Origin: an uncultured Chloroflexia bacterium
GTDB taxonomy: Bacteria; Chloroflexota; Limnocylindria; Limnocylindrales; CSP1-4
Length of the DNA: 64,000 bases
Reading direction: 5' to 3'
NCBI GenBank assembly: GCA_963768655.1
Contig: CAVYIM010000003.1
Location: forward strand, 717,682 to 781,681
This document shows positions 32,750-43,107 of this stretch, one piece after another. Each line of letters starts with the position of its first letter. The stretch's first letter is position 1. The notes below the pieces were generated by a model that searched no databases, was not told the DNA's origin, and was given only the letters and a program-made list of their open reading frames with translations. A program made the translations under genes and the position numbers.

Positions 32750-33931
32750 ATGAGCGCCGTCACTGCCTCGGCTGCGACGACCACCGAGCCGCTGAGCCTC
32801 GCCTTCCTCGGCGATCCCAACAGCGTTCACCTGCGGCGCTGGGTGAGCTACTTCGCCGCTCGCGGCCACACGGTGACCATGCTCGTCCGGGAGGAGAAGG
32901 ACGTTGAGCCGGGCCTGCCGCCGGACGTCTCCGTCGAGCGGTTCAGTCATTTCGCCGCCCGAGGCCGCGTGACTCCCGCCGGCCTGCTCAAGGGCCGCCG
33001 ATCCCTGCGACGCGCCGTGGCGCGGATCGAGCCCGACGTCCTCAACGCCCACTTCCTGACGGTCCACGGCTGGAACGCCTGGATGTCCGGGTTCCATCCG
33101 TATGTCGTGACGCTGTGGGGATCCGACGTCTTCATCCACCCGCGGCAGTCGCGTGCCGGTGCCCTCCTGGCACGGCTGGCGCTCCGGTCGGCCGACATGG
33201 TGATGGTCAACTCCGCGACGTTGATGCAGGGGGCGCTCGCGGTGGGGGCGCCGCCCGCAAGGACCAGGATGGTTCAGTTCGGAGTGGACCTCACGAGATT
33301 CACGCCCGGCCCGGCCCCGGCCGCTCTCCGGGCCCGCCTTGGATTGGACGGCCGGAGAGTCATCCTCTCCCCGCGTGCCATCACACCCCTGTATCGCCAT
33401 GGGATCATCGTGGAGGCCCTGACCCGGCTACCCTCCGACGTGGTCGTTCTGATGTCGCGCTATCGCGCCCAGGCCGACGAGGTGGAGAAGCTGGAACGCC
33501 TGGCCCGGGGCCTGGGCCTGGCCGATCGTGTCGTGCTGATGCCGGAGTTCGAGGAATCCGACATACCCGACCTGTACCGCATGTCCGACGTGGTCGCCTC
33601 CCTCCCCGCGTCCGACTCGACCGCGGCGACGATCCTCGAGGCCCTTGCCTGTGAGAAGCAGATCGTGGCCGGCGATCTGCCAAGCGTGCGCGAATGGCTG
33701 TGGGAGCTGGACAGCTCGGCCCTGGTCCCGATCGACGACGTTCCCGCCACCGCCGCCGCCCTGGCCCGCGCCCTGGACCGCGATCCCTCCGAGCGGGCGG
33801 ATCTCGGCCGTCGAGCTCGGGCAATCGTCGAAGCCCGGGCCGACCAGGCCGCAAGTCTCGCCAGAGTCGAGTCGCTCTACCGCGAACTGGCCCGGGCCGG
33901 CCGCGGCGGCGCCGCCGGGAGCCGACCCTGA
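32750..33931 (+). CDS. GT4 glycosyltransferase (paralog B)
   Basis: 'LSLAFLGDPNSVHLRRWVSYFAARGHTVTML', 'NAHFLTVHGWNAW', 'LWGSDV' and 'LPASDSTAATILEALACEKQIVAGD'. It is collinear with 28581..29720. Confidence 0.8.
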   Translation: MSAVTASAATTTEPLSLAFLGDPNSVHLRRWVSYFAARGHTVTMLVREEKDVEPGLPPDVSVERFSHFAARGRVTPAGLLKGRRSLRRAVARIEPDVLNAHFLTVHGWNAWMSGFHPYVVTLWGSDVFIHPRQSRAGALLARLALRSADMVMVNSATLMQGALAVGAPPARTRMVQFGVDLTRFTPGPAPAALRARLGLDGRRVILSPRAITPLYRHGIIVEALTRLPSDVVVLMSRYRAQADEVEKLERLARGLGLADRVVLMPEFEESDIPDLYRMSDVVASLPASDSTAATILEALACEKQIVAGDLPSVREWLWELDSSALVPIDDVPATAAALARALDRDPSERADLGRRARAIVEARADQAASLARVESLYRELARAGRGGAAGSRP

Positions 33932-33986
33932 GCAGCTTCGCCGCGCTGGTATCGTCTGCCGTGTCAATCACCTGGCCGGAGGCTAG

Positions 33987-35432
33987 ATGACAGCGTCGTC
34001 CGCGAGGAGCGGCTCTTTCACCCGGCGAGTGAGCGCCGTCTTCTCGACCAAGGTCGTCGCCTTCGCGATCTCGCTGGCGACGACGCTGGTGATCTCGCGC
34101 GTCCTGGGCCCCGCGGGCAAGGGCGAGTACGTCGCGGTTCTCGCCGTGCCCGGCTTGCTCGGTGCCATCGGCGTCTTCGGCCTTCCGAGCGCGGTCAACT
34201 ACTTCAGCGCCCGGGGCACGTCCGTGCGGGGGCTCCTCGAGGTCGGCCTGATCCTCACCGCGATCCTGTCGGCAATCCTGATCGCCCTGGTCTGGATCTC
34301 GATGCCGTGGCTCGAACAGGTCCTGCACTGGGTCTACCCGACCGCGATCCACGTCTGGTATGTGCCCGGCGGGGGCAAGGTCATCGGCTCCACCCTGGAT
34401 CGGTCGACGGCGGACATGGTGGAGGTCGTCCTGATCGTGATTCCCGCCGCGCTTCTGACCACCTTTGCCGCGTCCGTGCTCTACGGGCGACAGCAGGTCA
34501 GGACGTACAGCGCCATCCTGATCGGCCAGGGCGCGATCACGCTCGTCCTCTCCACTTTGCTGGTCGCGGTCTTCCGGTTCGGCGTCCCCGGCGCCGTCGC
34601 CTCGAGCATCGTCGTCACATGGCTGGCGGCCGCCGCCGACGTCGTCGCCGTCGGCCTCCTGGCGCGGCGAATGCCCCCCGGCTCGCGCGTTTCCTACCGT
34701 GGCCTGGCCGGCTACGGCTTCAAGGTCTACCCGGCCAGCATCACCAGCTACTTCAACTACCGGATCGACACCTACATCATCCAGGCAGTCATGCTCTCGC
34801 CGGAAGCTCCTCTGGGGCTCTACAGCATGGCCGTGACGATGGCGGAGTTGATCTTCTACGTCCCGGACTCGGTGACGATGATCTTCCTGCCCCGTGTCGC
34901 CGGTCTGCCGCAGGCGGAAGCCGACGCGCTGCTCCCGCGCGTGTCGAGGCTCACCGTTCTGATGACCGTCCTCGCGGCGCTGGCGCTGGTCCCGACGGCG
35001 TGGCTCGGGATCCATCTGGTCCTGCCCAGATTCAACGACTGTCTCCCCGCGTTCTACGTGCTGCTTCCGGCCGTGATCTCGCTGAGCGTGTCCAAGGTGA
35101 TGTCGTCCTACGTCGCCGGCCGCGGCCGGCCCGGGCCCATCTCGGTCGGGTCGGTCATCGCGGTCTGCGTCAACATCGCGGCCAACCTGATTCTCATCCC
35201 CATCTACGGCATAGTCGGCGCGTCCCTGGCGTCGCTGATCTCGTACACGGCGTCGGCCGCGATCCTGCTCGCCGTGGCGTGCCGTCTTTCGCGTCATTCG
35301 CTCTGGCAGCTGATCGTGCCGCGCGGAGAGGAAGTCCGGATCCTGGTGGCGGGCGCCCGCCGTGGCCTCGCTCGGGCACGGCAGGTGGCCGGCGGCCTCC
35401 GGGCCGGCACCAGCACAGGCGGCGCGTCGTGA
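33987..35432 (+). CDS. Wzx-like polysaccharide flippase (MOP/PST superfamily), copy 3
   Basis: 'VFSTKVVAFAISLATTLVISRVLGPAGKGEY' followed by a polytopic hydrophobic body of 481 aa. Confidence 0.75.
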   Translation: MTASSARSGSFTRRVSAVFSTKVVAFAISLATTLVISRVLGPAGKGEYVAVLAVPGLLGAIGVFGLPSAVNYFSARGTSVRGLLEVGLILTAILSAILIALVWISMPWLEQVLHWVYPTAIHVWYVPGGGKVIGSTLDRSTADMVEVVLIVIPAALLTTFAASVLYGRQQVRTYSAILIGQGAITLVLSTLLVAVFRFGVPGAVASSIVVTWLAAAADVVAVGLLARRMPPGSRVSYRGLAGYGFKVYPASITSYFNYRIDTYIIQAVMLSPEAPLGLYSMAVTMAELIFYVPDSVTMIFLPRVAGLPQAEADALLPRVSRLTVLMTVLAALALVPTAWLGIHLVLPRFNDCLPAFYVLLPAVISLSVSKVMSSYVAGRGRPGPISVGSVIAVCVNIAANLILIPIYGIVGASLASLISYTASAAILLAVACRLSRHSLWQLIVPRGEEVRILVAGARRGLARARQVAGGLRAGTSTGGAS

Positions 35433-36787
35433 GTGGTCGCGTCCTGGTGGTCACCTACTTCTTTCCGCCCGTCGGCGGCGTGGGCGTGCAGCGGACTCTG
35501 AAATACGTCACCTACCTGCCGCGCTGGGGTTGGGAACCGGTCGTGGTCGCGCCCGGCGACCCCGCCTTCCCGGTCCGCGACCCCTCGCTCGTCCCGACGC
35601 TCGCACCGGGTCTCGAGGTCCACCGAACCACCAGCCTGGAGCCCGGCCGCCTGCCGACCGCGGCCGTCCGCGTGCTGAGCCGCCGATCCAGTTCGGCAGG
35701 GGGCGTGTCGGCCGATCTGACGGCGAGCTCGGCCCAGGGCAGCCTTCCGCTCAAGGTGCTGCGCAAGATCTCAGTCGTGTGGAACCGGATCTGGGCGGTG
35801 CTGCTCTTTCCGGAGGGCGCGATCGCCTGGGTCCCGTTCGCCGTCCGGGCGGGGCGCAAGGCCAATCGGCGACGTTCGGTCGACGTCATCTACTCGAGCT
35901 CATCGCCGATCTCCGCGCACGTGGCGGCGGGTCTGTTGAAGGGCCGTATCCACCGGCCCTGGGTGGCCGACTTCCGCGATCCGTGGATCGGCAATCCCTT
36001 CGCTGCCCCGATATCGCGTCCCAAGCGCTGGATGCAGCGACGCATGGAGCGCTGGATCGTTACCCGGGCGGATCGGGTGATCGTGGCTGTGGACGCGATG
36101 CGAGTCCAGTTCGAGGAGCGTTACCCAGGGCTGGCCGGCAAGTTCGTGCACATTCCCAACGGCTACGACCGCGCGGACCTGGCCGGCATCGAGCCCGCGC
36201 CGCCCCCGACCCCCGGAGGCTTCCACCTCCTCTACGCCGGCAGCCTGTACCGACCCGGGGAGCTCGAGGCGTTCCTGCTCGGGGTCGAACGACTGCTTGC
36301 GCGCCGGCCCGAGCTCCGCCACCGCCTGAAGATCGATTTCCTGGGCCGGGTCAACGATCCCAACGCGAAGGCTGCGGCCGAGTTCGACAAGCCGGGACGA
36401 CTGGCCGGCGTGGTCGGCTTCGAGGGCTTCGTGCCGCGGCCGACGGCCCTGGCCCGGATGGCCGGCGCCGACGCGCTCCTGCAGCTCATGCCCGACATGC
36501 CCGGGGCGGAGATCTTCGTCGGCGGCAAGCTGGCCGAATACCTCGCCTTCGACCGGCCGATCCTGGCGGTGATGCCGCGCGGCGAGGGGCGGGCTCTGGT
36601 CGAAGGGCTCTCGACCGGGATCGTCGCGGATGTGGAGCCCGGCAGCGTCGCCGATGCGCTCGAGCGGCTGCTGGACCACACCCCGGCTCCGGCGCCGGCC
36701 GACCCGACCGGCCGCTTCGATCGGGTCAACCTGGCCGGCGAGCTGGCGCGCGAACTCGATCGAGTGGTCGCCGGCGCGGCGAGCTGA
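35429..36787 (+). CDS. GT-B fold glycosyltransferase (GT4-like)
   Basis: GTGA overlap with the flippase gene. 'RVLVVTYFFPPVGGVGVQRTLKYVTYLPRWGWEPVVV', 'IYSSSSPISAHVAA', 'LLYAGSLY' and 'KLAEYLAFDRPILAV'. Confidence 0.7.
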   Translation: MSGRVLVVTYFFPPVGGVGVQRTLKYVTYLPRWGWEPVVVAPGDPAFPVRDPSLVPTLAPGLEVHRTTSLEPGRLPTAAVRVLSRRSSSAGGVSADLTASSAQGSLPLKVLRKISVVWNRIWAVLLFPEGAIAWVPFAVRAGRKANRRRSVDVIYSSSSPISAHVAAGLLKGRIHRPWVADFRDPWIGNPFAAPISRPKRWMQRRMERWIVTRADRVIVAVDAMRVQFEERYPGLAGKFVHIPNGYDRADLAGIEPAPPPTPGGFHLLYAGSLYRPGELEAFLLGVERLLARRPELRHRLKIDFLGRVNDPNAKAAAEFDKPGRLAGVVGFEGFVPRPTALARMAGADALLQLMPDMPGAEIFVGGKLAEYLAFDRPILAVMPRGEGRALVEGLSTGIVADVEPGSVADALERLLDHTPAPAPADPTGRFDRVNLAGELARELDRVVAGAAS

Positions 36788-36840
36788 GCGCCGGGCGACT
36801 GGCTCTACGCCGGGGCGCGGGCCGCGCCGCTCGTCAGCCC

Positions 36841-38124
36841 TCACACCGCGACGAACGACGTCACCAGGAGTACCAGCGACAACACGACGAGCAGGCCGGT
36901 GCCGATCCAGCCGATTGCCGACAGCACTCGCCCGCTCGCGAGCGGTCCCATCAGTTCTCGGTTCGATGCCAGGCGCATGACGAAGACCAGCACGAACGGC
37001 AGCAGCAGGCAGTTGATGACCTGAGCCGTGAACATCACCTGCACGAGCAGGCGCGGCGGCACGAGCAGGATGAACAGCCCGGCGAAGGCAACGAAGAAGA
37101 TCATCAGACCGTAGAAGGCCGGTGCCTCGCGCAGGCGCCAGTCGACGCCGGTCTCCCAGCCGAAGGCCTCGCAGGCGGAGTAGGCGCTCGTCAGCGGCAC
37201 GGTACCGAGGCCCAGGAACGACGCGGCGAGCAGGCCCACGGCAAAGAGGACTGTGGTCTCGCCACCAGCAAGCGGCTGCAGGGCGCGCGCGATCTGCTGG
37301 ATCGCATCGGGAGAGGTCGTGTCGATGTGGATGCCAGCCGTGTACACGGCTGCGGCGCAGGCGATGATGATGAATGCGCTGATGAGGTTCGTGAGGAGCG
37401 CGCCCAGCCCAACATCCAGCCGCTCGCCGACGAGATCCTCCGGACCGAGCCGCTTGTCCGCCACGTAGGACTGGATGAACGCCTGGCCCCAGGGCGTGAT
37501 CGTGGTCCCGACCGTGGCCACCACTGTGAGCCAGTACAGGCTCGAAGAGTCCAGGGCAGGTACGACCATGGAGTGAACCGCGTGGCCCCAGTCCGGATGG
37601 GCCAGGAGCGCAGAAACGAAATACGAGAGAGAGACTCCGGCGCCTACGGCAACGAACAGGTATTGGACCTTGATGTAGCTGCCGCGGGTCAGCAGCAGGA
37701 CTACGACCGTCGCGGCGAGAAGCGCGCTGATCCAGTTGGGCACGCCGAAGAGGCCGAGAGCCGCGCCGCAGCCGGCAAACTCGGACACGATTGTGCCCAC
37801 GTTGGCGATGAGCATGGTCATGATCAGGAACGCTGCCCAGCGAACGCCGTACTTCTCGCGGACGATGCCGGCCAGGCCCTGGCCCGTAGCCAGTCCGAGC
37901 CGGGCGCCCACCTCCTGTGTGAAGAACAGCACGATCTGGCTGGCGAGAATGACCCACAGCAGCTCGTAGCCATATCGCACACCCGCCACGGAATAGGTGG
38001 AGATGCCGCCGGCGTCGTTGTCGGCGAAGCCGCTCACGAGCCCCGGGCCAAGGACACCCAGGATCGCGGCCAGGCGGACCCGGTTTACCGCGCGAGGGGT
38101 CAGAGACAGGACCGGAGCCCTCAC
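36841..38124 (-). CDS. NRAMP/SLC11-family transporter with non-canonical metal site (NRMT-like)
   Basis: 427-aa polytopic protein. TM1 reads 'GFADNDAGGIS' where canonical NRAMPs have DPGN. TM6 reads 'GTTITPWGQ' where canonical NRAMPs have A-x-x-M-P-H. The overall NRAMP layout is present ('GYELLWVILASQ', 'QEVGARLGLATG'). Confidence 0.85.
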   Translation of the reverse strand: MRAPVLSLTPRAVNRVRLAAILGVLGPGLVSGFADNDAGGISTYSVAGVRYGYELLWVILASQIVLFFTQEVGARLGLATGQGLAGIVREKYGVRWAAFLIMTMLIANVGTIVSEFAGCGAALGLFGVPNWISALLAATVVVLLLTRGSYIKVQYLFVAVGAGVSLSYFVSALLAHPDWGHAVHSMVVPALDSSSLYWLTVVATVGTTITPWGQAFIQSYVADKRLGPEDLVGERLDVGLGALLTNLISAFIIIACAAAVYTAGIHIDTTSPDAIQQIARALQPLAGGETTVLFAVGLLAASFLGLGTVPLTSAYSACEAFGWETGVDWRLREAPAFYGLMIFFVAFAGLFILLVPPRLLVQVMFTAQVINCLLLPFVLVFVMRLASNRELMGPLASGRVLSAIGWIGTGLLVVLSLVLLVTSFVAV

Positions 38125-39398
38125 CGGTCCGGAGTCCCCGAGGTCCGCCCGAAGATGCGCGGAATCCTGATCCTGGCGGGCCGGGGCAGCAGCGTGTCGA
38201 TGGCGTCGTCGACGGTCACGATGCCTTCGAGGTGGCCATCGTCGTCAACGACCGGCACCGCCAAAAGGTTGTAGCGGGCCACGACCTCGGTGACCTCTTC
38301 CTGACCGGCGTCGGTCTTGACCGCGACAGGCTCGGCGTACATGAAGGTGGAGATGCGCGTGCTCGGCTTGGCGACGATCAGGTCTCGCAACGACAGGACG
38401 CCGACCAGCTTGCCGGCCTCGTCGGTCACGTACACGTAGTAGATCGTCTCGGCGTTGGGCTCGAGCTCTCGCAGGCGGTCGATCGTCTGGGCCGCCGTCA
38501 GGCTGGCCGGCACGGCCACGAACTCGGTCGTCATGATGCCGCCGGCCGTGTCCTCCGCGTAGGTCATGAGCTCCTGGACTTCCTGCGCCTCGTCCTTCTC
38601 CATCAGGCCGAGGATCTCCTCGCGGCTCTCGTCCGACAGGTCGGCCACGAGGTCCGCCGCCTCGTCCGGATCCATCTCCTCCAGGATGTCGGCGGCGCGG
38701 GCGGGCTCCAGGTCCTCCAGGATGTCCACCTGAGTCTCGGGTTCCATCTCGCCGATGGCATCGGCTGCCGCCTCGTCGTCCAGGGACGAGATCACGCCGA
38801 CTCGGTCGTTGCGGCTGAGCTGGTCGATGATCGTCGCCAGGTCCGCCGGGTGGAGCTCCGCCAGGCCCTTGTGGGGGACTCGCAGCTTGACGCTGGCGAT
38901 CGTTCGCTCCACCGGATCGACGTCCTCCCAGTCGATGTACCGCTCGGGGACTTCGCGGTGTAGACCGCGGGCGAGCGTCCGCCATGGCCCCTCGATGCCG
39001 AGCCGGCGAAGCAGGCCGGACGCGCCGACGTCCACGGCGACCAGATGCAGCGCGCCTTCGACCTCGTCGAGCCGGAGGTCGTTGACGCGGACTACCTTGC
39101 GGCCGTCGATGTCGACGATCTGGCGGTCCATCAGATCACGCTTGAGGCGAATCTCGTTGGGCCGCTGGTGGAACTTGCTGATGTCGATCGCGGTCGTCTG
39201 CAACGTGGCGCCGGTTGAGTCCAGCGACGCCACCGACTGCCACGCAAGGAAGATCTCCCGGCCGTTGGTCCTGACGACTATGCCGGTCACGGGCGGATAC
39301 CGATCGCCGATGGCGACGATGAGGTCGGCGACGGTTCCGATCGGCTCGCCCAGCTTGTCACGCACAGGCCGGCCGATCGCCTGGCTCAGATAGAGCAT
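38121..39398 (-). CDS. soluble PRC-barrel x2 / MgtE N-domain / CBS-pair protein (MgtE cytosolic sensor module with no pore domain)
   Basis: PRC-like 'IGRPVRDKLGEPIGTVADLIV' and 'LMDRQIVDIDGRKVVRVNDLRLDEV'. MgtE_N acidic helices 'LDDEAAADAIGEMEPETQVDILEDLEPARAADILEEMDPDEAADLVADL'. CBS pair 'GIMTTEFVAVPASLTAAQ...GVLSLRDLI...LLAVPVVDDDGHLEGIVTVDDAID'. There are no TM helices. ATG 39398 is preceded by GAGGTGG. The stop overlaps the NRAMP GTG as GTGA. Confidence 0.8.
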   Translation of the reverse strand: MLYLSQAIGRPVRDKLGEPIGTVADLIVAIGDRYPPVTGIVVRTNGREIFLAWQSVASLDSTGATLQTTAIDISKFHQRPNEIRLKRDLMDRQIVDIDGRKVVRVNDLRLDEVEGALHLVAVDVGASGLLRRLGIEGPWRTLARGLHREVPERYIDWEDVDPVERTIASVKLRVPHKGLAELHPADLATIIDQLSRNDRVGVISSLDDEAAADAIGEMEPETQVDILEDLEPARAADILEEMDPDEAADLVADLSDESREEILGLMEKDEAQEVQELMTYAEDTAGGIMTTEFVAVPASLTAAQTIDRLRELEPNAETIYYVYVTDEAGKLVGVLSLRDLIVAKPSTRISTFMYAEPVAVKTDAGQEEVTEVVARYNLLAVPVVDDDGHLEGIVTVDDAIDTLLPRPARIRIPRIFGRTSGTPDR

Positions 39399-39703
39399 GT
39401 GCCACCTCGACGGCGGGTCTGCGGACGGGGCCCGACCCGCCCGAGGTGGCGCGCGCCGCAATGGGCGCGAACCGCTTAGAGGGCGAAGCGGACCAGAGAG
39501 CGAATGTCGGCGCCCCGGGCGCCGCAGGTACTGGGTCCGGTCTCCACTGAGGGAGAGATCCTCCGAAAGCGTGTTGGAACGGGCCGTAAGGCGCGGTTAC
39601 ATGCGCCTTCGACCACGTCGGAGTTTAGCCCCGGGTATGGGCGAGGGTCAACGCGAACCGCGTCCGGAGATGGTGAACGTAAGTACGATTGCCGCGGGCC
39701 CGG

Positions 39704-41185
39704 ATGTACCCGCACCATGAGAGGGTGCGAGACGTCCGTTTACGCGACGCTTTCAATGTGGGCTCGTGGCTCCGCTTTCGGGGGGACGGCAGTTCGCCCG
39801 GATTCGACACGCAATCGATCTCGCTGACGTGGACGTTGCTCTCCGTCGCGATAGCGCTCCTTCTCGGGCAGGCGTTGGTCGGTTTCGTGGTGGGCCGAAA
39901 CAGCCTCGCCGATCTCGCCCTGGCGATCGCGACCGCGCTGCTGGTGGCCTCGGCCGTTCTGAATGCCCGCGCCTCGGGCATTCGCGCGGAGAGACGCCAC
40001 TCCGAGTCCGAGAGCTTCGGCCGGCTCCTCCAGGCTCTGTCGCGATCCGTGTCGCCGAACGCGGTCATCGAGGCCATCGTGCATGAGCTCGGCACGGCGA
40101 CGCGGGCGGACCACGTGGCGGTCGTGCAGAAGCGGCCCGGCGGCACCGTCCTCGACGTGAGTTTCGTGTCGATGCTGCCGGGATCGCCGGCCTCGAACAC
40201 CGTCATGCCCGTTGGGCAGCTGGCGCCCGTCGAGACGCGAAAGCTGCGCATCGCGCCGCGGCCGGCGAGCGGTTCGGCTCCCGACGCCGGCGGATCGGGC
40301 GGTTGGAACGAAGAGGCGGACGACGCGTCGGCGCGCGGGCGCTCTCTGCACTGGCAGTCCCAGGCCGAGCGGCGTCCGACCGACGACGGCCTCCGGAGAC
40401 GCGGCTGGCGGCCGCCGGAGTTCATCGCTCCCGTCCAGGAGGATGGAGTGAACGCCCGCGACGTGGCCAACCAGATCGCCCACCGATTGCGGGATGCGTA
40501 CGGCCTTCGGAATACTCTGGCCGCGCCTCTGCTGGAAGGCGATTCGATCGTCGGGGCGATCGTCCTTTCGCGCCGCACCAGCGAGCCGTGGACGGACTCT
40601 TCGGTCCGGCTGCTGAACAGCGCGGCCGGCGAGACGACGGCGGCGCTGGCCAGGGTCTACTCGCACCAGGCCGCCGAGGCGGAGGCGCGCACCGACCAGC
40701 TGACGCAGCTGCCGAACCGGCGCTACTTCGACGAGTACTGCACGCTCGTAGCCAGCCGCCGGCGGGCCACCGACCGGGTCGCGATTCTGGCCGTCGACGT
40801 CGACCACTTCAAGCGCGTCAACGACATGTACGGGCACCAGATCGGCGACCAGGTCCTGCGAGCCATCGGCGACGCGATTCAGGCGTCGGTCCGCGGCGAG
40901 GATCTGCCGGCCCGCTATGGCGGCGAGGAGTTCATGGTCCTGCTGCGGAACCCGAGCGCCGGCGTGGCCCTGGAGATCGGCGAGCGGATACGCACCACGG
41001 TACGGGAGCTGGACCTCGTCGACGCGGGCGTGACGGATCGCGTAACGGTTTCGCTGGGAGTGGCGTCCGGGCTCGCCAGCGACGAGTCGATCTCGGAGAT
41101 CGTGGAGCGGGCGGACCGGGCGCTCTACGCGGCCAAGCGCACGGGCCGCGACCGGGTTGTGGAGGCCTGGCCTTCGGAGGGGTGA
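39704..41185 (+). CDS. membrane-anchored diguanylate cyclase (GGDEF) with a GAF-like sensor region
   Basis: 'DQLTQLPNRRYFDEY', 'LAVDVDHFKRVNDMYGHQIGDQVL', 'ARYGGEEFMVLL' (GGEEF) and 'ADRALYAAKRTGRDRV'. Two N-terminal TM helices. The start is uncertain (ATG 39704 or GTG 39758). Confidence 0.85.
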   Translation: MYPHHERVRDVRLRDAFNVGSWLRFRGDGSSPGFDTQSISLTWTLLSVAIALLLGQALVGFVVGRNSLADLALAIATALLVASAVLNARASGIRAERRHSESESFGRLLQALSRSVSPNAVIEAIVHELGTATRADHVAVVQKRPGGTVLDVSFVSMLPGSPASNTVMPVGQLAPVETRKLRIAPRPASGSAPDAGGSGGWNEEADDASARGRSLHWQSQAERRPTDDGLRRRGWRPPEFIAPVQEDGVNARDVANQIAHRLRDAYGLRNTLAAPLLEGDSIVGAIVLSRRTSEPWTDSSVRLLNSAAGETTAALARVYSHQAAEAEARTDQLTQLPNRRYFDEYCTLVASRRRATDRVAILAVDVDHFKRVNDMYGHQIGDQVLRAIGDAIQASVRGEDLPARYGGEEFMVLLRNPSAGVALEIGERIRTTVRELDLVDAGVTDRVTVSLGVASGLASDESISEIVERADRALYAAKRTGRDRVVEAWPSEG

Positions 41186-41213
41186 CGCCGCCGGCTGGGG
41201 CTACCATTCGGGC

Positions 41214-43107
41214 GTGGAGCCTTCGCCCTCAGCCGAGCCTTCGCCCTCAGCCGAGCCTTCGGCCAGGGTCGAGCTTTCGCCGGCCGCCCTTTCGAACGGC
41301 GAGCTGGCGCGCATCTTCCATGAGATCGGCGACATGCTCGAAGTCAAGGGCGAGCTCGTCTTCAAGACCGTGGCCTACCACAAGGCAGCCGACGCGATCG
41401 CGCATTCGCCCGTGGAGGTTTCGCGCGCCTACCTGGACGGCCGGCCGCCGCGGATCCCGGGCGTCGGTGAGGCGATCGCGAAGAAGATCGAAGAGCTGGC
41501 CCGAACCGGCCACCTGGCTTTCTACGAGCGGTTGCGCGAGGAGGTGCCGCCCAGTCTGGTGGCGTTGCTGGAGATCCCCGGTGTCGGGCCGCGGACGGTC
41601 AAGCAGCTGCACGAGGAGCTGGCCGTCGAGACGCTGGACGATCTCCGGCGGGCGGCGGAGGCAGGCGCCCTGCGGTCGCTCAAGGGCATGTCGGCCAAGA
41701 CGGAGGAACAGATCCTGGCCGGCATCGCGGCCCTGGAGACGCGCCAGGAACGGATGCGTCTGGGCCAGGCCGAGGCAATAGTCGAGACTCTTCTGGCCGA
41801 GCTCTCCGATGTACCGGGGTTGCGCTCGCTGACGCCGGCGGGGTCCTTCCGCCGCCGCCGCGAGACGATCGGCGACCTCGACCTACTGGCGGAGACCGAT
41901 CGACCGGCCGAGCTGGTGGAGCGGTTCACCACTCTCGGATCGGTCGAGTCGGTGCTGGCCAAGGGGCCGCACAAGGCCGCCGTTCGTCTGCTGCGTGGGC
42001 CCCAGGTGGATCTGATGATCATGCCGCCCGGGGAGGCGGGCACGTACCTGATCCACTTCACCGGGTCGAAGGAACACAACGTCCGGCTGCGCGGGATGGC
42101 CCGCGACCGCGGCTGGAGCCTCTCAGAGAAAGGCTATCTGCGGCTCAATGAGGAGGGCGAGCCGGCGCTGGGGGAGTCCGGCGAGGCGGCCGAGCTCCGA
42201 ACCTTCCCGACCGAGGCGGACGCCTACGGCTTCCTCGGCCTGCCTTTCATCGAGCCCGAACTGCGCGAGGATCGAGGCGAGATCGAGGCGGCGATCGCGG
42301 GGACGCTGCCCGTGCTCGTGGCCCGTACCGACCTGCGCGGCGATTGCCACAGCCACTCCGACTGGTCGGACGGAGTGCACTCGATAGAGCAGATGGCGCT
42401 GGCGGCGCGGCGGCGCGGCTACTCCTACCTGGCCCTCACCGACCACACCGTCAGCCTGGCGATCGCCCGCGGGCTGGATCTCGAGCGGGTGGAGCGGCAG
42501 CGCCGGATCGTGGCGGCCCTGAACGAGCGGTTCGCCCGCGAGGAGGCCGACGGCACGGCTCCACCGGAGACGTCGACTGAGGGCTTCCGGCTGCTGCACG
42601 GCTGCGAGCTCGAGGTCCGCGCCGACGCCACGCTCGACTACCCGGACGAGCTGCTGGCTCGCTACGACCTGGTCGTCGCCTCGGTCCACGTCGCCCGGCG
42701 TCAGACGCGCCAGCAACTGACGGCTCGAACCCTCGCCGCCATCGGCAACCCCAACGTCGACATCATCGCCCACCCGGCCGGGCGCTACATCGGCAGCCGC
42801 GACGACCTCGATCTCGACTGGGACGCCGTCTTCGCCGAGGCCGCCCGGACCGGCACCGCACTCGAGCTGAACGGCTCGGACGAACGGCTGGATCTCTCGG
42901 ACGTTCGAGCCCGGCGAGCTGCCGAGTTCGGGTGCGTCTTCGTGGTCGAATTCAGACGCTCACCGCACCGAGGAGCTGGACAACCTTCGTTGGGGCACCG
43001 CCATGGCCCGCCGAGCCTGGCTCGGGCCCGATCGGGTGATGAACACCCGCTCCCGCGCTGAGCTTCTGGACTGGGCCGCCGCGAAGCCGGGGCGGCTGCA
43101 TCCATGA
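41214..43107 (+). CDS. polX: family X DNA polymerase with C-terminal PHP domain; apparent +1 frameshift at ~42949
   Basis: HhH 'NGELARIFHEIGDMLEVKGE..FKTVAYHKAA' and 'IPGVGPRTVKQL'. Palm 'GSFRRRRETIGDLDLL'. PHP 'DCHSHSDWSDG' and 'LTDH'. The annotated frame ends in nonsense ('EFRRSPHRGAG'). Deleting one A at 42949/42950 gives 'VVDSDAHRTEELDNLRWGTAMARRAWL' and a stop at 43105-43107. Confidence 0.85.
41217..41288 (+). repeat. 18-bp in-frame tandem repeat (2 perfect + 2 degenerate units) encoding EPSPSA
   Basis: gagccttcgccctcagcc occurs twice, followed by gagccttcggccagggtc and gagctttcgccggccgcc. The repeat begins right after the proposed polX GTG start. Confidence 0.9.

Follow-up and report, generated by a model that had tools for sequence, protein, structure and literature searches.

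Within the Nramp (SLC11) family, the NrmT clade was named by Shin et al. (2014, PLoS Genet 10:e1004429, PMC4072509), who reported that a gene for an MgtE cytoplasmic domain neighbours "most group members" and speculated on "cytoplasmic feedback regulation of transport" or metal chaperone activity for this neighbour. In the C. acetobutylicum NrmT operon (Ca_c0685) the MgtE-like gene is split in two, and the M-box riboswitch served in that study as the marker of a high-affinity Mg2+ subset of NrmT, without being required for the clade. The riboswitch-less pair of A. capsulatum (Acp2976/Acp2977) fully rescued a Mn2+-uptake mutant and rescued a Mg2+-uptake mutant at millimolar Mg2+ only; in B. subtilis, NrmT proteins functioned without the partner, and its addition brought no gain (Shin et al. 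2014). These carriers, the NRMTs, form the fourth family of bacterial Mg2+ importers and are uncoupled according to a single biochemical study. Here we describe a pair of this kind in a 64,000-nucleotide stretch of contig CAVYIM010000003.1 (assembly GCA_963768655.1; hereafter the window) from an uncultured Chloroflexia bacterium (Candidatus Limnocylindrales, Chloroflexota), in which an MgtE-type sensor gene (gene A) overlaps an NRMT gene (gene B). The locus sharpens the question, for which a brake was suggested in 2014, of how an uncoupled NRMT carrier avoids overloading the cell.

On balance, the sequence evidence inclines us to read the two genes as a coupled uptake operon of the NrmT/NRMT type, in which the NRMT imports Mg2+ and the MgtE-type partner acts in trans as a Mg2+-dependent brake. 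The first-pass annotation had presented the combination of an MgtE_N-CBS protein with an NRAMP as novel, a claim that fails because Shin et al. had published both the pairing and the feedback hypothesis. The gene pairing is thus known since 2014, and the window locus adds undescribed features to it. As in the operons described then, members of the same two families are adjacent and co-transcribed with the MgtE-like gene upstream, and as in the A. capsulatum pair there is no M-box. The window pair differs in its origin from Chloroflexota (Limnocylindria), in its overlapping stop and start codons, and in having another, clade-specific structured leader at the place of the M-box. EleNRMT of Eggerthella lenta, the closest solved carrier, was studied alone and its paper does not discuss a partner, which is not taken up in the Cellier SLC11 phylogeny paper, a 2026 Nramp preprint or a 2026 Mg2+ transporter review either; a 2025 survey of MgtE architectures covers genes with a transmembrane (TM) domain only and does not take it up.

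The NRMT gene and its metal site

The features of the two genes, in window coordinates and with the evidence for each in brackets, are as follows.

38121..39398, minus strand: sensor gene A, PRC-PRC-MgtE_N-CBS-CBS, soluble and pore-less, 425 aa, ATG start (Pfam, NCBIfam, PDB search, hydropathy, AlphaFold2/Foldseek)
39174..39398, minus strand: PRC-barrel 1, about residues 1-75 (Pfam PRC, AlphaFold2)
38913..39155, minus strand: PRC-barrel-like segment 2, about residues 82-162 (Pfam sub-threshold, hhalign, Foldseek)
38550..38855, minus strand: MgtE N-domain, residues 182-283 (Pfam MgtE_N, E-value 1.3e-27)
38190..38531, minus strand: CBS pair, about residues 290-403 (Pfam CBS, PF00571, two stretches)
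38124..38189, minus strand: basic C-terminal tail LPRPARIRIPRIFGRTSGTPDR (translation, alignment of 14 diverse partners)
38121..38124, minus strand: GTGA, sensor TGA overlapping transporter GTG, translational coupling (translation, relatives)
36841..38124, minus strand: gene B, NRMT-type transporter of the SLC11 outgroup, 427 aa, GTG start (Pfam Nramp, PDB phmmer)
38005..38016, minus strand: TM1 site D37-A38-G39-G40, canonical D-P-G-N (PDB alignments, translation)
37489..37506, minus strand: TM6 site T207-T208-I209-T210-P211-W212, canonical A-x-x-M-P-H (PDB alignments, translation)

Gene B matches Pfam Nramp (PF01566) with an E-value of 1.4e-83. In a phmmer search of the PDB it aligned with EleNRMT (7qia) over residues 17-424 (E-value 3.6e-88, 299 bits), compared with about 1e-26 (~96 bits) for DraNramp, 6e-18 for plant NRAT and 1e-15 (~60 bits) for ScaDMT. 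The HMMER alignments place D37-A38-G39-G40 of TM1 on D-P-G-N of DraNramp and D-A-G-G of EleNRMT, and T207-W212 of TM6 on A-T-V-M-P-H and T-T-I-A-P-W, respectively. The two altered motifs that the first-pass annotation had picked out are thereby confirmed, as is its reading of an NRMT-like site that has lost the Asn and the soft Met ligand, G40 and T210 standing at those positions. Among 18 diverse NRMTs, G39, G40 and T207 are invariant and N36 and D37 nearly so. Residues of the proton pathway are replaced, with W212 and I217 for the TM6b histidines and I112 for DraNramp D131; E115 (alpha-3) and Q368 (alpha-10) are kept. Gene B therefore shares with EleNRMT (7QIA/7QIC) the D-A-G-G of TM1, the Thr at the TM6 Ala position, the Trp for the first TM6b His, the alpha-10 Gln, the alpha-3 Glu and the hydrophobic substitutions along the proton path. 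The same residue features have been tied to the transport of hydrated Mg2+ and to absent proton coupling (Ramanadane et al. 2022, eLife 11:e74589); in that work, EleNRMT T224, the equivalent of T207, was required for Mg2+ but not for Mn2+ transport, and the carrier moved Mn2+ too. By these residues, gene B is an NRMT with a predicted EleNRMT-type widened hard-ligand site (Asp37, Gly40, Thr207 and Gln368) and without the Met ligand.

The former Met position is occupied by Thr210 in gene B and by Ala in EleNRMT (TPWG versus APWM). Plant Al3+ transporters (NRATs) share the A-x-x-T replacement, which has been read there as a hard oxygen ligand. A search of 1.84 billion cluster representatives gave 485 NRMT-matching proteins at E<=1e-30, of which the TPWG variant is a subset; its loci belong to Chloroflexota, Dormibacterota, Actinomycetota, Armatimonadota, Patescibacteria and Pseudomonadota, and the variant may mark a sub-clade with its own selectivity.

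The MgtE-type partner and its linkage to the NRMT gene

Gene A carries Pfam PRC (PF05239; residues 2-57, E-value 9.9e-9, 35.5 bits, cut-off 21.2) and MgtE_N (PF03448; residues 182-283, same E-value as above), and it terminates 22 residues past the second CBS domain. TIGR00400 (mgtE) gives 200 bits, below its cut-off of 232.75, over profile positions 25-251 of 450, which are the cytosolic part. Among solved structures, the cytosolic domain of T. thermophilus MgtE comes closest (2yvy, E-value 5.5e-50), and residues 19-253 of TtMgtE are 44% identical to gene A over 225 residues. Pfam found no PF01769 TM pore domain in gene A; the five-helix pore with the Mg1 Asp (D432) and the plug helix are absent, and the peak 19-residue Kyte-Doolittle hydropathy (1.16) is below TM level. 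Such a product would not be an MgtE channel. The domain order given in the first-pass annotation, two PRC-like segments, an MgtE N-domain and a CBS pair with no TM helix behind them, is thus upheld, PRC segment 2 being sub-threshold in the window. A TM domain hidden behind a frameshift was ruled out, since all three frames past the sensor stop were read and encode the NRMT alone. Close homologues are 421-425 aa long, 85-96% identical and of identical architecture (120 matches listed), and 7976 proteins are related at E <= 1e-10; an exact-sequence look-up returned no existing record of the window sensor. A longer sensor starting from the TTG at 39461 was rejected because of the homologue lengths (424-425 aa) and the GAGGTGG immediately 5' of the ATG.

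PRC segment 2 of the sensor scores 18.7 bits against Pfam PRC in the window (E-value 1.8e-3) and 35.8 bits in a Patescibacteria homologue. Pfam PRC as such is detected in 13 of 14 diverse sensor homologues; hhalign relates segment 1 to segment 2 with a probability of 73% (E-value 3e-5). A single-sequence AlphaFold2 model was uninformative over the N-terminal 180 residues (predicted local distance difference test score [pLDDT] of ~30). In the model built on a 71-sequence alignment, barrel 1 has beta strands at residues 11-66 with pLDDT of ~90, and barrel 2 (pLDDT 65-89) is beta-rich and barrel-like with an inserted helical hairpin. Foldseek ranked MgtE cytosolic domains in all of the top ten places for the sensor model, and it matched the PRC module to the CdpB1/CdpB2 PRC heterodimer (8qzo_A, E-value 3e-5, 139 columns). 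The predicted module superposes on this heterodimer of archaeal cell-division proteins (PDB 8QZO) at 16% sequence identity; the sensor has a single chain instead of two and an unrelated biological context, and the likeness is one of fold only. The sensor's N-terminal 170 residues are assigned to a probable tandem PRC-barrel module, and the superposition suggests that its two barrels pack like a PRC dimer that acts as a protein-binding platform.

No other motif of the sensor is as well conserved as one in PRC-2 (L-D-K/R-Q-I-V-D-x-D-G-x-K-V-V-R-V-N-D ... G-L-L-R-R-L-G), in which Q93, R104, N106 and R131 are invariant across phyla. Because the most conserved stretch with its invariant residues lies here, PRC-2 shows the pattern expected of an interaction surface. 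To judge from the alignments, the tandem module is always part of the partner, in all 14 sampled lineages, and a near-universal partner with a PRC module offers an obvious candidate docking surface. Shin et al. (2014) mention neither PRC nor barrel nor CBS, and a literature search turned up no paper joining "PRC-barrel" and "MgtE"; the tandem PRC module of the NrmT partner is new here as an addition to the 2014 description.

The regulatory Mg2+ sites of TtMgtE have been defined by mutagenesis and nuclear magnetic resonance (PMC5882242). Mg4 (D91/D247) corresponds to D245/D398 of the sensor, Mg6 (D95) to D249 and Mg7 (E59) to D213, and the ligands of these three sites are retained in 12-14 of 14 partners from different phyla, which supports the idea of an MgtE-derived sensor put forward in the first-pass annotation. 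The plug helix of MgtE with its acidic Mg2/Mg3 ligands is replaced by a basic tail with the family motif W-[KR]-[KR]-R-L-P-R-[LI]-[FY] (14 partners); with an AlphaFold2 pLDDT below 50, this tail is probably disordered on its own. The retention of the Mg2+ ligands at the N/CBS interface and the exchange of plug helix for basic tail likewise go beyond the 2014 description, and the surviving ligands are residues that can now be mutated. The sensor and the MgtE Mg2+ channel (T. thermophilus; 2YVX/2YVY) therefore share the N-domain and CBS pair with the three sites just named, whereas the sensor lacks the TM pore, the plug helix and Mg1-Mg3, has the extra N-terminal tandem PRC module, and is made as its own polypeptide from a gene next to that of an unrelated LeuT-fold carrier.

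The TGA of gene A and the GTG of gene B overlap in GTGA, as the first-pass annotation had it; the translation agrees, and the identical 4-nt overlap is present in seven related loci (L001-L006 and L008). An in-frame stop lies two codons 5' of the NRMT GTG, and in relatives with a 92% identical sensor, NRMT residues 2-18 have been kept through a dozen or so synonymous changes. Because of this stop and this conservation, the GTG start with the 4-nt overlap is the sole reading that retains TM1. Gene callers in L001-L003 (7338-8558) start the NRMT at an internal ATG 60 nt past the sensor stop, giving 406 aa. For the window such a start is ruled out (38062-38124), as the sequence lacks an ATG at that point and purifying selection acts on residues 2-18. 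Since the 21 upstream codons are conserved and the internal ATG is absent from the window, public annotations of the NRMT gene are probably N-terminally truncated.

To assess conservation of the pair, a single genome of each species was scanned with a pattern derived from an alignment of diverse NRMTs; the scan returned 80 loci, of which three end at a contig edge and were excluded. A full-length sensor homologue, aligned from residue 1 to about 405 with the PRC region included, adjoins the NRMT gene on the same strand in 73 of the 77 informative loci, and in 26 of 30 once about 50 Collinsella/Coriobacteriaceae loci are set aside. The pair loci carry the labels Chloroflexota, Actinomycetota, Armatimonadota, Patescibacteria, Pseudomonadota, Acidobacteriota, Nitrospirota, Myxococcota and, for one metagenome-assembled genome (MAG), "Nanoarchaeota", about ten phyla altogether. 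The partner lies mostly upstream of the NRMT, with a gap of -35 to +171 nt, and downstream in L016, L017 and L030. A reciprocal check used two distant proteins that only the PRC-module profile had detected; both are followed downstream by a CBS gene and an Nramp gene. The conservation across genomes on which the first-pass annotation had staked its reading is thus clear, and adjacency, co-orientation and the reciprocal result point to a functional link between the two genes.

Several variants of the pair were observed. In the two loci of the reciprocal check (L200:4001-6853 and L201:4001-6660) the sensor is split into a PRC+MgtE_N gene and an MgtE_N/CBS gene before the Nramp gene, a split sensor as in the C. 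acetobutylicum NrmT operon; the Nramp gene of L201 is likewise broken in two, perhaps through an assembly error. The Collinsella/Coriobacteriaceae partner (L042:3109-4962 and about 50 others, L031-L083) is 614-618 aa long; its CBS pair is followed by about 190 further residues that are hydrophobic, comprise several helices and belong to no Pfam family. An MgtE pore was ruled out for this extension, there being no PF01769 match. Eggerthella lenta, from which EleNRMT comes, belongs to the class in which this membrane-anchored variant occurs. Pairs or NRMT genes in MAGs labelled as Patescibacteria and Nanoarchaeota, lineages known for very small genomes (L019, L029 and L032), may reflect horizontal transfer or binning errors.

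Proposed feedback and its alternatives

In the arrangement that we favour, the NRMT would most likely be driven by the membrane potential, with no coupling to H+, and let in hydrated Mg2+ as well as Mn2+; an uncoupled electrogenic carrier of this kind would need a brake. The partner would most likely dock on the cytosolic face of the NRMT, using the invariant surface of PRC-2, the basic C-terminal tail or both, bind Mg2+ at the conserved N-domain/CBS interface sites and close as in MgtE; at sufficient cytosolic Mg2+, transport would be slowed or blocked, a negative feedback in trans. Expression would be set separately by a structured leader, whose last hairpin would sequester the Shine-Dalgarno (SD) sequence and which, in the Limnocylindria lineage, would stand in for the M-box found in some NrmT operons of other bacteria. 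If true, a sensor module would here clearly have been transferred between two unrelated transporter folds.

A number of observations weigh against this arrangement. Four of the 30 non-Collinsella NRMT loci (L014, L015, L020 and L021), which come from Dormibacterota, Chloroflexota and unclassified MAGs and keep the DNDAGGI and GTTITP motifs, have no partner nearby, as checked over at most 5 kb on either flank (in L014, over some 1.6 kb on the upstream one), and no natural sensor-NRMT fusion was found, ten long representatives carrying the Nramp domain alone. Of the MgtE sites, Mg5 is only half retained, with N377 at the D226 position and D401 equivalent to TtMgtE D250, and the plug-helix sites Mg2/Mg3 are gone from the sensor. 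Neither the M-box (RF00380) nor any other Rfam family was found in 36000-41000 of the window at E<=1 or in 14 related loci at the gathering threshold. The finding that NrmT works without its partner in B. subtilis fits an inhibitor and fits equally well a partner with no effect. The riboswitch-less A. capsulatum transporter rescued the Mn2+ defect better than the Mg2+ defect (Shin et al. 2014), and because gene B has Thr at the TM6 Met position where EleNRMT has Ala, its selectivity could differ.

The last of these points bear on the substrate, and with it on the strongest alternative, namely, that the same unit is tuned to Mn2+ or another divalent metal and that the partner senses Mn2+ or the general divalent load. 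The A. capsulatum rescue, the transport of Mn2+ by EleNRMT, the absence of an M-box from the window and from the 14 related loci, and the TPWG motif of TM6 would all be in keeping with it. On the other side, Thr207 is invariant, and EleNRMT deprived of its equivalent no longer transports Mg2+ although Mn2+ still passes; gene B lacks the soft Met, a ligand favourable to transition metals; and the residues retained in the partner are Mg2+ binders in TtMgtE. We consider a Mn2+-tuned unit rather unlikely, yet the likeliest of the alternatives. Of the two-polypeptide system for uptake of Mg2+ or another hard cation proposed at first, the NRMT carrier and a linked MgtE-type sensor can be retained as inferences; regulation in trans would be a hypothesis, and Mg2+ a probable substrate.

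The partner could instead be a positive factor, either a metallochaperone to which the carrier hands over the ion or a subunit for assembly or stability in the native membrane. Shin et al. (2014) gave metal chaperone activity as their alternative, the overlapping codons suggest a co-ordinated and near-equal output like that of subunits of one complex, and the ~190-aa hydrophobic extension would keep the Collinsella partner permanently at the membrane. However, NrmT complements transport mutants by itself with nothing gained from the partner, and what is conserved in the partner corresponds to the low-affinity Mg2+ sites by which a gating module is regulated and not to a chaperone-type site, so that we hold a positive role to be improbable. 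Finally, an upstream gene that is a decayed or split mgtE, deprived of its TM domain by a frameshift or a faulty assembly and adjacent to an Nramp gene only by chance, has next to no probability and is refuted as an artefact: MgtE_N plus CBS alone does resemble a truncated mgtE, and TIGR00400 is the best NCBIfam match, but the frames past the stop encode the NRMT alone, the 120 matches listed all have 421-425 aa and one architecture among 7976 relatives, diverse homologues share the end point, an N-terminal PRC module is unreported for MgtE channels, no PF01769 occurs among the matches listed, and the pairing persists over about ten phyla.

The operon leader and surrounding genes

Control at the level of expression is suggested by the region upstream of gene A, which has the following features.

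39622..39651, minus strand: sigma-70-like promoter TTGACC-N18-TAAACT (conserved hexamers)
39399..39615, minus strand: structured 5' operon leader, ~215 nt (alignments, RNAalifold, covariance model R1, folding z-score)
39396-39568, minus strand: core of the leader covariance model
39564-39559/39554-39550, minus strand: leader helix H1
39547-39544/39486-39483, minus strand: leader helix H2
39539-39534/39494-39489, minus strand: leader helix H3
39524-39518/39514-39508, minus strand: leader helix H4
39468-39465/39454-39451, minus strand: leader helix H5
39441-39436/39417-39412, minus strand: leader helices H7-8
39401..39450, minus strand: SD-sequestering hairpin, helix 6 (pair counts, minimum-free-energy fold)

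Both promoter hexamers are kept in 9 of 10 aligned relatives, and the leader is conserved in alignments of Limnocylindria relatives. A search pattern built on the invariant blocks of this leader hit 116 metagenome stretches. The sensor gene begins a few codons downstream in 96 of them; the remaining matches are mostly chance and were rejected by the covariance model, except for three contig ends that the model still recognises. This model (R1), built from ten leaders, found 78 instances; every one belongs to a locus of the Limnocylindria type, and the NRMT loci of other phyla gave no hit.

MAFFT and RNAalifold recovered only 11 pairs from 71 leaders because the hairpins vary in length, and this alignment was replaced by that of the covariance model. 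With the reservation that the latter is an alignment fitted to the model within one clade, from a search pattern that fixed helix 3 and part of helix 6, 92.5% of cells are paired versus 36-55% in slid controls; 20 of 38 pairs are changed on both sides, compared with 9.0 +/- 1.9 in shuffles (0 of 500) and 5-8 in slid controls; and the covariation score is 0.151, against at most 0.052 in controls. The window leader itself has a folding z of -4.59.

In helix 6, the anti-SD GCCACC (39450-39445) pairs with GGUGGC (39406-39401), which overlaps the SD GAGGUGG 5' of the ATG. The anti-SD CCACC is invariant, its partner being the GGUGG of the SD; the helix is paired in 97.5% of cells, with three pairs altered on both sides, and is present in the minimum-free-energy fold. 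The M-box (ykoK) riboswitch (RF00380) has an equivalent position, as it lies in the 5' leader of operons for Mg2+ transporters, some NrmT operons among them. The window leader has another architecture and is predicted to act on the SD and not on a terminator, no terminator-like site having been found.

On this evidence, the leader has a conserved secondary structure with covariation and a predicted SD-sequestering expression platform, and it is a candidate for a new cis-regulatory RNA or riboswitch that occurs only upstream of the sensor-NRMT operon and only in loci of the Limnocylindria type. It would be separate from the protein pair, an RNA tied to a single operon of an uncultured lineage that abounds in freshwater and soil, and it is the most novel lead of the locus and the one most worth following up. 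More speculatively, and at present doubtful, the leader could be a riboswitch of a new, metal-responsive class, or could be bound by the sensor protein itself, in either case opening or closing the SD hairpin; the NRMT would then be under two levels of control, the other being gating by the PRC-docked MgtE-type sensor.

Three of the 96 leader-bearing stretches (L087:4057-4212, L105 and L124) have the leader and about 43 first codons of the sensor followed by unrelated genes, and they look like remnants of a deleted sensor-NRMT operon; the L087 copy is weak (40.6 bits). The operon is flanked by the following genes.

39689-41185, plus strand: GAF-GGDEF diguanylate cyclase gene, divergent, sharing the intergenic region
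41157-43061, plus strand: PolX/PHP DNA polymerase gene, overlapping the GAF-GGDEF open reading frame at 41157-41185
32750-36787, plus strand: glycosyltransferase/flippase cluster, converging on the 3' end of the NRMT gene

A gap of 290 nt separates the sensor gene from the divergent GAF-GGDEF gene, and the same surrounding gene order is found in the relatives whose sensor is 92% identical.

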